A stretch of 64,000 nucleotides of DNA. Origin: Schmidtea polychroa. Taxonomy: Eukaryota. Under the pieces are notes generated by a model. The model was not told the DNA's origin, did no database searches, and saw only the letters and a program-made list of their open reading frames with translations. Position numbers and translations under genes: made by a program. Shown here piece by piece: positions 12,641 through 14,029 of this stretch. The DNA is taken from contig CM097886.1 of assembly GCA_044892525.1 (NCBI GenBank), forward strand, positions 9,176,001 through 9,240,000, read 5' to 3'. Each line of letters opens with the position of its first letter. The stretch's first letter is position 1.

Positions 12641-14029
12641 CTACTCAGTCCTACTCTTCCCATCTCGCCTCACCGCTATTTTTATGTATATAGTGTCGTT
12701 TCTCGTCATATCCTCCACTTTCCGCTGTAGGATGAAATTCGGTGCTCCGGTTGCTGGTCCTTCTTCTTCCAATGGCCTTTGATAACATACGAGGTTTCCC
12801 GCTGTATGGAAACTCTGTTCATGTATACTTAGATAGTTCATCATTGCGAGGTCTATTTTTGCTTTGAACGGCCATTCTATTAACTCATCGTATAGCCCTT
12901 TGCATATCAAGAAGGATATTGAGAAATGTGTTCCGTGCGCGCTTCCGTCCCCGTTGGGATATGCTTTCATTTTCATCTTATACCCGTTTTTCCATGAATA
13001 GAATGCCGGACTTAGTAATGTTGTATCTTTTCCATTTCTCGCTCTCTGCATTTTCTCCTTTACTTCCGTTATTTTCCATATGTATGGAGCCGTTGGTATC
13101 AATTCATTGAGGTTCATTTCACTTACTTTTTGATGTAGTTCTTTCACCATTTTGTTGCTAGTTTCTACTAGATCTGTTTGTATCTTTGTACTTAGTCTTG
13201 CCTCTTCGAATGCTTCTTTCTCTTGCAAAAATTCTTTTACCAACGTTTTTAGCGAGGTTATTTCCTTTTCTAGGTTTTCGGTTTTCTTTTCGTTTTCTTG
13301 TAATACCGTTGACCACATTTCCGCGTGTGTTGATACGTTCTCTGCTAGATGTTGGGGTAATTCTCCTCGGTGTAATTGTTTCTGACATCCCCATTTTCCT
13401 AACACACACCTTATCTTTTTCCTTTCACATTCTTTCAGATGTTGAGCGAGTTTTATTACTCCGGGTTTATCGCATTTGTTGGGACATTCTCCTCTGAATT
13501 CTGCGCACACTTTTTCCTCTTGTACGTTATGATGTTGACTCGTTAGTTTTCTCCAGGTGTCGGTTTCTCCGCAATATTCACATTTTTCTAGCCTTTCCTT
13601 GCATCGACTTTGATGTTCTGCTTCTTCACTGGCTTTAATCTCTTCTTGGCAACGTTCGCAGTGACTGACTTTATACTCACACTTCTCCATGTGTTGCCTT
13701 ACTTCCCATATCACTCCTCGCCAATTGCATGGGGTGTTTTTACATCCTAAATTTGCATTTAACATATCTTTTACAGCTGCTTTATCTTCGTTTGTATCTC
13801 CCAAACTTGTTATCATGGTTTCTTTACATACTGGGCACCATTGTGGTCCCTTCTTTATTATCTCCTCTATACATTCTTTGCACATTCGACATCCACATCT
13901 GGTTTGGTGAGGTTCTCTTAATAATCCCTTGCATATTCCACACTTCACATGGTCATGTATTCGAATTGTGGTGGATTTTCTGACTTGTTCGACAATTTCT
14001 TTGAATTCTTCTCTTTGTCGCTTATCCAT
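12641..14029 (-). CDS. TRAF: Full-length intronless TRAF (RING, TRAF zinc fingers, coiled coil, MATH/TRAF-C)
   Basis: RING CGICKGLLREPHQTRCGCRMCKEC..CPVC; repeated C/H zinc fingers; MATH YIWKIT..SPAFYS..GYKMKMKAYPNGDGSAHGTHFS..WPF. Confidence 0.92.
   Translation of the reverse strand: MDKRQREEFKEIVEQVRKSTTIRIHDHVKCGICKGLLREPHQTRCGCRMCKECIEEIIKKGPQWCPVCKETMITSLGDTNEDKAAVKDMLNANLGCKNTPCNWRGVIWEVRQHMEKCEYKVSHCERCQEEIKASEEAEHQSRCKERLEKCEYCGETDTWRKLTSQHHNVQEEKVCAEFRGECPNKCDKPGVIKLAQHLKECERKKIRCVLGKWGCQKQLHRGELPQHLAENVSTHAEMWSTVLQENEKKTENLEKEITSLKTLVKEFLQEKEAFEEARLSTKIQTDLVETSNKMVKELHQKVSEMNLNELIPTAPYIWKITEVKEKMQRARNGKDTTLLSPAFYSWKNGYKMKMKAYPNGDGSAHGTHFSISFLICKGLYDELIEWPFKAKIDLAMMNYLSIHEQSFHTAGNLVCYQRPLEEEGPATGAPNFILQRKVEDMTRNDTIYIKIAVRRDGKSRTE

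Follow-up and report, generated by a model that had tools for sequence, protein, structure and literature searches.

The locus analysed here, a window of 64,000 nucleotides of genomic DNA, raises the question of what a complete gene for a TRAF protein does inside a retroelement, where it came from and whether it belongs to the element at all. The original prediction of an intact, intronless RING-ZnF-coiled coil-MATH protein was borne out. The gene (12641..14029; like every gene, motif, LTR and nested insertion of the element described below, on the reverse strand) is a single uninterrupted ORF of 462 amino acids from ATG to stop, with no N inside. Pfam identified a C3HC4 RING domain (E 5.2e-5; aa 30-68, 13826..13942) and a MATH/TRAF-C domain (E 5.5e-24; aa 316-454, 12668..13084), and between them lie five TRAF-type zinc fingers (aa 96-235, 13325..13744) and a predicted coiled coil (TRAF-N; helix aa 232-306, 13112..13336), which is the domain order required of TRAF proteins. 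All 28 zinc ligands are kept: the RING has eight cysteines, with Cys at the fourth ligand position, a trait shared with triclad TRAFs, and of the fingers four are CCHC and one is CCHH. The AlphaFold model (mean pLDDT 82) consists of a 75-residue helix (232-306) and a beta-sandwich (316-454), Pfam placing the MATH domain at 316-453, and Foldseek returned domains of TRAF2, TRAF3 and TRAF1 as top matches (E ~2e-15). By sequence, TRAF3 and TRAF2 come nearest in the MATH part and TRAF6 and TRAF5 in the N-terminal part, the RING-to-finger spacing being close to that of TRAF6. The element TRAF shares fold, domain order and top PDB matches with human TRAF2/3/5 (MATH) and TRAF6/5 (RING and fingers), but in its RING the His ligand is absent and the TRAF2 insertion largely missing, its coiled coil is shorter, and by trees it is orthologous to none of them. 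The earlier label of a 'TRAF2/3-type' protein therefore stands for the similarity of the MATH domain but not as orthology, since the trees place the gene in a planarian-type radiation.

The gene lies in a complete gypsy element bounded by a 5' LTR at 44974..48344 (3,371 bp, shortened by a 17-bp and a ~0.8-kb deletion) and a 3' LTR at 5382..9570 (4,189 bp), with TG..CA ends and a 4-bp target site duplication, CTAT (left 5378..5381, right 48345..48348). The LTRs differ by 8 mismatches over 3,377 aligned bases, and the insertion is therefore very young. Net of two LINE insertions the element measures 29.7 kb, with an internal region of 22.1 kb and LTRs of 4.19 and 3.37 kb. In the direction of transcription, the 5' LTR is followed at 7 nt by a primer-binding-site-like motif (44950..44966), which we take to resemble tRNA-Pro, and by an upstream accessory ORF of 159 aa (44020..44499) with a C-terminal RING (PF13920) and no BIR match, presumably IAP-like. 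Next come gag (Retrotrans_gag and CCHC knuckles, 39749..41836, its frame open from 42163), a ubiquitin-like region of the gag-env part (28043..29929; ubiquitin E 0.0038, below the cut-off), a weak Bcl-2-like stretch (about 28115-27855; E 0.012, below the cut-off) and, in two frames, an env-like region for a Monjiviricetes-type fusion glycoprotein (25545..28205; PF24664, E 7.5e-46 and 2.3e-27). The open pol part (2,225 aa, 14642..21319) encodes protease, RT, RNase H and integrase in the gypsy order, then ankyrin repeats (Ank_2, E 6e-16) and a C-terminal hydrophobic segment. In this copy gag-env is broken by frameshifts and by the two LINE insertions, and pol and the TRAF are open. The TRAF is one of five ORFs downstream of pol. 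It is preceded by an ORF of 119 aa (14115..14474; helical, no family above cut-off) and followed by ORFs of 345 aa (11385..12422; coiled-coil-like by composition, no family), 108 aa (10882..11208; no family) and 211 aa (9802..10437; one hydrophobic segment and a Q/P/T/S-rich tail); an Atlas search with the 345-aa ORF gave no match that explains it. The predicted position between pol and the 3' LTR is thus confirmed, the TRAF lying 612 bp 3' of the pol stop and 3,070 bp 5' of the 3' LTR, which has no clear polypurine tract directly before it.

Several further features of the locus were recorded. Both LTRs carry an ORF (5917-6681, 254 aa, read from 6681 to 5917, no family; and 45492-46106), of which the 5' LTR copy lost its start region in the 0.8-kb deletion. 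A tandem repeat of ~81 bp occupies 43197-43440, in the leader that runs from the upstream RING ORF to gag, and is followed by several GTAAG donor-like sites (43046-42167). The two nested LINE copies, one 5'-truncated (21350..25313) and one full-length (29969..38976), are foreign to the element and belong to a single non-LTR family, 97.9% identical and in the same orientation, with an Ulp1-like protease and RT, which we assume to be NeSL/Utopia-like; on the coding strand, both copies finish with tandem repeats (~1.7 kb) and a long run of T instead of poly(A). A perfect duplication of 329 bp of element sequence (29640-29968 and 38977-39305) surrounds the full-length LINE and may be a target duplication of unusual length or a product of the assembly. 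The element itself appears to have inserted into what the translation leads us to take for a decayed hAT-type transposase gene (about 5000-5381 and 48345-50000). Outside the element, two tandem arrays with units of ~30 bp and ~14 bp and strong strand skew are found at 60880-63050.

The TRAF is complete and has taken on the A-rich composition of the element. The frequency of A at four-fold sites is 0.59 in the TRAF, 0.55 in pol and gag, 0.53-0.57 in env and 0.27 in the nested LINE, and the RSCU correlation with the TRAF is 0.68-0.78 for five core ORFs and 0.17-0.18 for two LINE ORFs, in agreement with the codon style first noticed. The flanks of the ORF carry neither poly(A) (longest run 6) nor a target site duplication, and no 12-mer is common to both sides.

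In addition, the TRAF belongs as a fixed accessory gene to a Burro-like gypsy/env retroelement that is multicopy and was recently active. When four public runs from four studies (X1, X5, X7 and X8) were compared with window positions 2000-21900, the depth of the two TRAF bins relative to the ten pol bins was 0.74 in X1, 0.80 in X5, 0.66 in X7, presumably an RNA run, and 1.13 in X8, a ratio of contig depth that gives no copy number; relative to unique flank, TRAF depth was 218x in X1, possibly the source of the assembly itself, and 41x in X5, again as contig depth and not as copy number. Contigs unlike the window bridge the junctions of the cassette: pol-ORF119 in X7 (record 20, 42 differences in 601), and ORF119-TRAF and TRAF-ORF345 in X8 (records 28 and 27, both of which differ from the window). 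Among the contigs listed, none reaches from pol to the LTR in one piece. The capture claim would have been refuted by absence of the TRAF from other copies or by insertion boundaries of its own; neither was seen. Among the 15 of 64 joints listed, one contig from X1, with roughly the depth of a single copy, connects 9298 with 14028, either because the entire cassette is deleted there or by chance, another contig skips ORF119, and some contigs have loose ends at 12943. None of the seven listed indels within 11209-14641 (12 of 96 indel rows were listed) falls in an ORF, though ORFs make up 81% of this span and AT-rich spacers are indel-prone anyway. Synonymous changes account for 4/6 substitutions in the TRAF, all four in codons 81-85, and 13/19 in pol, among the 40 of 1,618 substitutions listed, which makes this a weak comparison.

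As judged from its sequence, the element is a Burro-like giant planarian gypsy. Burro1-4 and GYPSM1 of Schmidtea mediterranea (Jurka 2007, Grohme 2018, as described in the available part of PMC6431247) are likewise elements of ~30 kb with very long LTRs, an internal region that in the Burro-like group reaches 25 kb, mononegavirus-type env between gag and PR-RT-RH-IN, and ankyrin, TRAF/MATH and coiled-coil cargo, a likeness drawn from published description only. They have ubiquitin-like and Bcl-2-like motifs between gag and env, a place where the window element has candidate counterparts that stay below the Pfam cut-offs. The same source lists MATH_TRAF_C, BIR, ankyrin, Bcl-2-like and Ubi/SUMO-like domains as Burro cargo, with env between gag and pol, and already proposes that Burro interferes with apoptosis and ubiquitination (PMC6431247). 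Capture of a TRAF is therefore not new, because MATH/TRAF-C, Bcl-2, BIR and ankyrin cargo has been published for Burro. The arrangement differs, however. In GYPSM1 the MATH_TRAF_C lies inside a 4,873-aa ORF1, before the ubiquitin-like and Bcl-2 motifs (PMC6431247), whereas the window element has a separate post-pol ORF with the full RING, five zinc fingers, coiled coil and MATH. A Burro-like element of Dugesia (Girardia) tigrina also has MATH_TRAF_C in an accessory ORF outside the polyprotein, but upstream of ORF1 (PMC6431247, which is silent on a RING or fingers in it), whereas the TRAF of the window is downstream. TRAF cargo thus appears to move, given these three different positions among Burro elements. 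Elements of S. mediterranea are reported to carry a BIR, whereas the window element has the upstream RING ORF instead, and its gag-env part is broken; no BIR domain was found among the element ORFs scanned by Pfam (some short frames fell outside the scan), which argues against identity with Burro1-4 and not against membership of the Burro-like group. Pfam likewise gave no match to a dUTPase-like motif between PR and RT (pol 1-250), where the published call had used HHpred. What is new is the full-length TRAF as a separate downstream ORF, present at about the depth of pol in all four runs. The probable triclad origin, the probably element-borne TRAFs of databases and the acceptor pattern described below also appear to be new, as they were not found in the literature searched, including the available part of PMC6431247; figures or supplements of Grohme 2018 and Jurka 2007 may already show a full-length TRAF ORF.

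Intact relatives found in public assemblies are the single-ORF polyproteins P0175, P0176 and L001, which share 36-45% identity with it in env and 43-46% in pol, L001 being the sole env relative confirmed among JGI metagenome candidates (1/451). In IMG/VR neither pol nor an env alignment brought up a relative, and a search of JGI metagenomes for the TRAF locus gave 64 pattern matches, none of them confirmed. No MATH domain occurs in the P0175 and P0176 polyproteins, nor any TRAF match within the 12.9 kb of L001. L001 has two ORFs after its polyprotein, one of 496 aa (10617-12107) that carries an RNase T/DEDD exonuclease domain (E 1.4e-5), the other a coiled-coil ORF of 141 aa (12241-12666). Since this slot holds an exonuclease in L001, the TRAF would help some lineages without being essential to the Burro-like group as a whole. 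Cargo domains also appear to move within the polyprotein, since ankyrin repeats precede the protease in P0175 and follow the integrase in the window. Additional domains resembling aspartic proteases occur in P0175, P0176 and L001 (2-10282), in P0176 as three Pfam stretches, and the C-termini of these polyproteins form membrane-anchored tails.

To place the TRAF, three trees were built. A word-index protein search had returned distant relatives only (16 of 2,847 candidates, 23-28% identity). HMMER against 1.84 billion representatives gave 6,221 matches at an E of 0.001. The listing covered the top 150, and 110 of the 166 matches assembled in all entered the main tree (<=760 aa and >=330 aa aligned, plus five partial ones picked by hand). 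In this tree the element TRAF forms one clade with P0018, P0024, P0028 and P0097 (support 99), nested in a clade of 19 rows (support 97). Both clades were recovered with 99 and 97 in a quick search of 31 rows under the C20 mixture model, and with 98 and 97 after Dayhoff-6 recoding of 24 rows without P0097 and P0063; a purely compositional artefact as the source of the A-rich clade is thereby ruled out. Only 4 of the 18 database rows in the larger clade bear species names, and all four are triclad TRAFs: TRAF-2, -4 and -5 of Dendrocoelum lacteum (T1DF65, T1DBK6 and T1D122) and TRAF2-like A of Dugesia japonica (ADF47429). The element TRAF groups with them and apart from the fish sequence P0037 and limpet TRAF3 (P0043). 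A Cys in place of the RING His occurs in 15/16 callable rows of the clade, as in D. lacteum TRAF-2, -4 and -5, vs 7/69 outside it, where one carrier is a crinoid, so that the trait is not unique to the clade. By tree position and RING ligand, the element TRAF is a member of this planarian-type radiation. It shares architecture and a similar length with the triclad host TRAFs of D. lacteum and D. japonica, and falls in one clade with them in all three trees, but its identity to the nearest host-style TRAFs, among the matches listed, is ~30-32% (36% to the intact relative P0018), and its composition ratio is 2.06, against 1.14-1.45 in the host proteins. These trees and the A-rich composition support the earlier view of an ameliorated cargo gene of host origin. 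The C20 tree leaves the branching order of the element clade within the triclad clade open and the recoded tree has a host-style group branching first with 84%; because of this, the direction of capture is likely but not proven. Overall, we strongly infer that the host is a triclad planarian and that an ancestor of the element lineage took the TRAF long ago from the triclad TRAF radiation via an RNA intermediate, its frame being still kept open.

The composition ratio, defined as K+E+R+T+Q+M over F+L+S+V+Y, also bears on the claim that such elements inflate host TRAF families. It is 2.7-3.4 in the four nearest proteins, and the median of the 166 matches is 1.16. A profile of the four retrieved a fifth A-rich protein, P0196; all five carry UniParc ids. 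Four of them (P0024, P0028, P0097 and P0196) are truncated before the MATH domain, P0018 being complete, and the truncated ones look as decayed element copies annotated as genes would. Composition, together with the tree position of the four nearest, indicates that the five are probably element-borne, and some contamination of host TRAF counts by element cargo appears likely. The claim of inflation holds to this extent, but 4/5 of these proteins lack the MATH domain, and 14/19 rows of the triclad-type clade have host-like composition, from which it follows that a real expansion of host TRAFs exists. The ratio is an imperfect measure, as a value of 2.5 is reached by the N-terminal half of TRAF-5 from D. 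lacteum, and amino-acid composition is best seen as a quick first screen for element-borne TRAFs. Published counts of planarian MATH domains or transcripts are 99-121 (PMC6109357) and 282 (PMC7586133), and the available parts of these two papers do not mention retroelements as a source. Such counts, as well as lists of piRNA-regulated 'genes', may include element cargo. One host-style TRAF model, P0026, opens with an integrase-tail fragment of a Burro-like element (residues 14-52, 59% to P0175) and is probably a chimeric annotation. In long matches such as P0017, P0019 and P0020, Pfam marks as many as 13 MATH stretches, and a RING stands at the N-terminus of some; none of the 15 long multi-MATH matches scanned contains retroelement domains.

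How a gene this far downstream may be expressed is suggested by the starts of the ORFs. The spacers between the downstream ORFs are AT-rich and 85-444 nt long, and the one before the TRAF (85 nt, 20% GC, also holding AATAAA) is closed by a candidate splice or trans-splice acceptor, YAG, at 14032..14034, 2 nt before the ATG. A YAG likewise stands 2 nt before the ATG of the upstream RING ORF. Such a YAG ends 0-5 nt before the ATG in 6/7 accessory ORFs, the 119-aa ORF being the sole one without it, vs a background of 21% within 7 nt (binomial P ~5e-4, for a window of 0-7 nt that was chosen after the data were seen), and a YAG lies nearby for 26 of the 88 remaining ATGs in these spacers. In the independent relative L001, both downstream ORFs (2/2) have a YAG directly before the ATG, against backgrounds of 17% within 7 nt and 2.5% for the exact position. 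S. mediterranea is reported to use spliced-leader trans-splicing, and spacers of up to 300 bp have served to define operon candidates in flatworms (available part of PMC12582326). The pattern fits spliced subgenomic mRNAs, and cis-splicing from an upstream donor would fit equally well as spliced-leader trans-splicing. On balance we favour the view that the TRAF, like the other ORFs of the cassette, would be expressed as a separate mRNA by splicing, by either route, to the acceptor before its ATG. The pattern thereby suggests a route by which a 30-kb retroelement may express its downstream genes.

Complex retroviruses and foamy-like fish ERVs also place additional ORFs after the core genes and before the 3' LTR, and these seem to be expressed from spliced mRNAs. 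Unlike these, the window element has a gypsy-type pol, a recognisable whole host signalling gene as cargo and five short-spaced ORFs that resemble a flatworm operon. Foamy-like fish ERVs are mentioned in the available part of PMC6431247.

As to what the protein does, the reading that we prefer, namely a fixed TRAF cargo of triclad origin, expressed by splicing and with a TRAF-like pro-survival function, is as a whole probable in our view. The residues of the peptide groove, whose roles we presumed, including that of the three-serine stretch of TRAF3, fall in the element TRAF within the range of host triclad TRAFs, and its residues would be compatible with trimerisation, binding of receptor peptides and E3 activity. 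Together with the complete ligands, the TRAF6-like RING spacing and the phenotype of host genes, whose knock-down in planarians alters cell survival (available part of PMC7586133), this makes an active TRAF-type adaptor and E3 ligase the most likely prediction. The protein would then work like a host TRAF, trimerising via coiled coil and MATH, binding tails of receptors or adaptors and ubiquitylating via its RING, and together with the Bcl-2-like, RING and ankyrin cargo it would bias stress and immune signalling towards the survival of cells where the element is replicating; we see the chances of this step as even. The published idea of Burro 'tinkering' with apoptosis and ubiquitination would in this way become testable on a single host-type TRAF, complete and encoded separately, within a family that is young and multicopy.

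The fold might instead be kept as a decoy or dominant negative, which joins host TRAF trimers or occupies receptor tails so that signalling is blocked. The low identity to the nearest host-style TRAFs listed and a long stem branch would agree with this, as would the alignment of the three serines of TRAF3 with L-V-C in the element TRAF; yet similar groove substitutions occur in host triclad TRAFs, and a decoy would have no use for the RING and five fingers whose 28/28 ligands are kept, which leaves this reading unlikely, though not far-fetched. Quite unlikely is a role internal to the element, in which the MATH domain would recruit an element protein or a host silencing or restriction factor for ubiquitylation, serving particle assembly or counter-silencing and not TNFR/TLR-type signalling. 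Besides ubiquitin-like regions and a further RING protein, the element does encode proteins anchored in the membrane, the slot holds a nuclease in L001, and PIWI is reported to control Burro (available part of PMC8532177), but no candidate substrate was found, and the sole PxQxS motif, in the tail of the 211-aa ORF, occurs in 20% of shuffles. An LMP1-like module formed by this tail and the TRAF was considered separately and rejected, the motif being at chance level (20% of 10,000 shuffles).

It is improbable, in turn, that the transfer ran in the reverse direction, so that part of the planarian TRAF expansion would consist of element-borne TRAFs dropped into the genome and domesticated. This would agree with the C20 tree, which does not settle the place of the element clade within the triclad clade, with the integrase-tail fragment at the start of P0026 and with TRAF cargo at three positions across Burro elements (window and PMC6431247), but the A-rich bias is limited to one subclade (5/19 rows), though composition could have re-equilibrated, and a host-style group branches first after recoding. 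Very improbable is a neutral passenger or separate retrocopy, that is, a processed host mRNA inserted in one copy and amplified without function, for which the intronless ORF and the mostly truncated A-rich relatives may speak, but which is at odds with full amelioration and deep divergence from host TRAFs combined with intact zinc ligands, with the intact relative P0018, with flanks free of poly(A) and target site duplication and with the listed indels avoiding the frame.

A possible lead comes from silencing: in planarians, many mRNAs of traf, E3-ligase and ankyrin genes are reported to be degraded by SMEDWI-3 piRNAs (available part of PMC6824462). These target domains are the same set as carried by Burro-like elements. 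A wider but doubtful proposal is that such elements express, via the spliced-leader machinery, an exchangeable operon-like cassette of captured host genes (the TRAF here, the DEDD exonuclease in L001), and that their TRAF, RING and ankyrin cargo explains the targeting by SMEDWI-3, some of the 'genes' being cargo or cargo-derived piRNAs reaching host paralogues. If so, one retroelement would both manipulate and tune host TRAF signalling.
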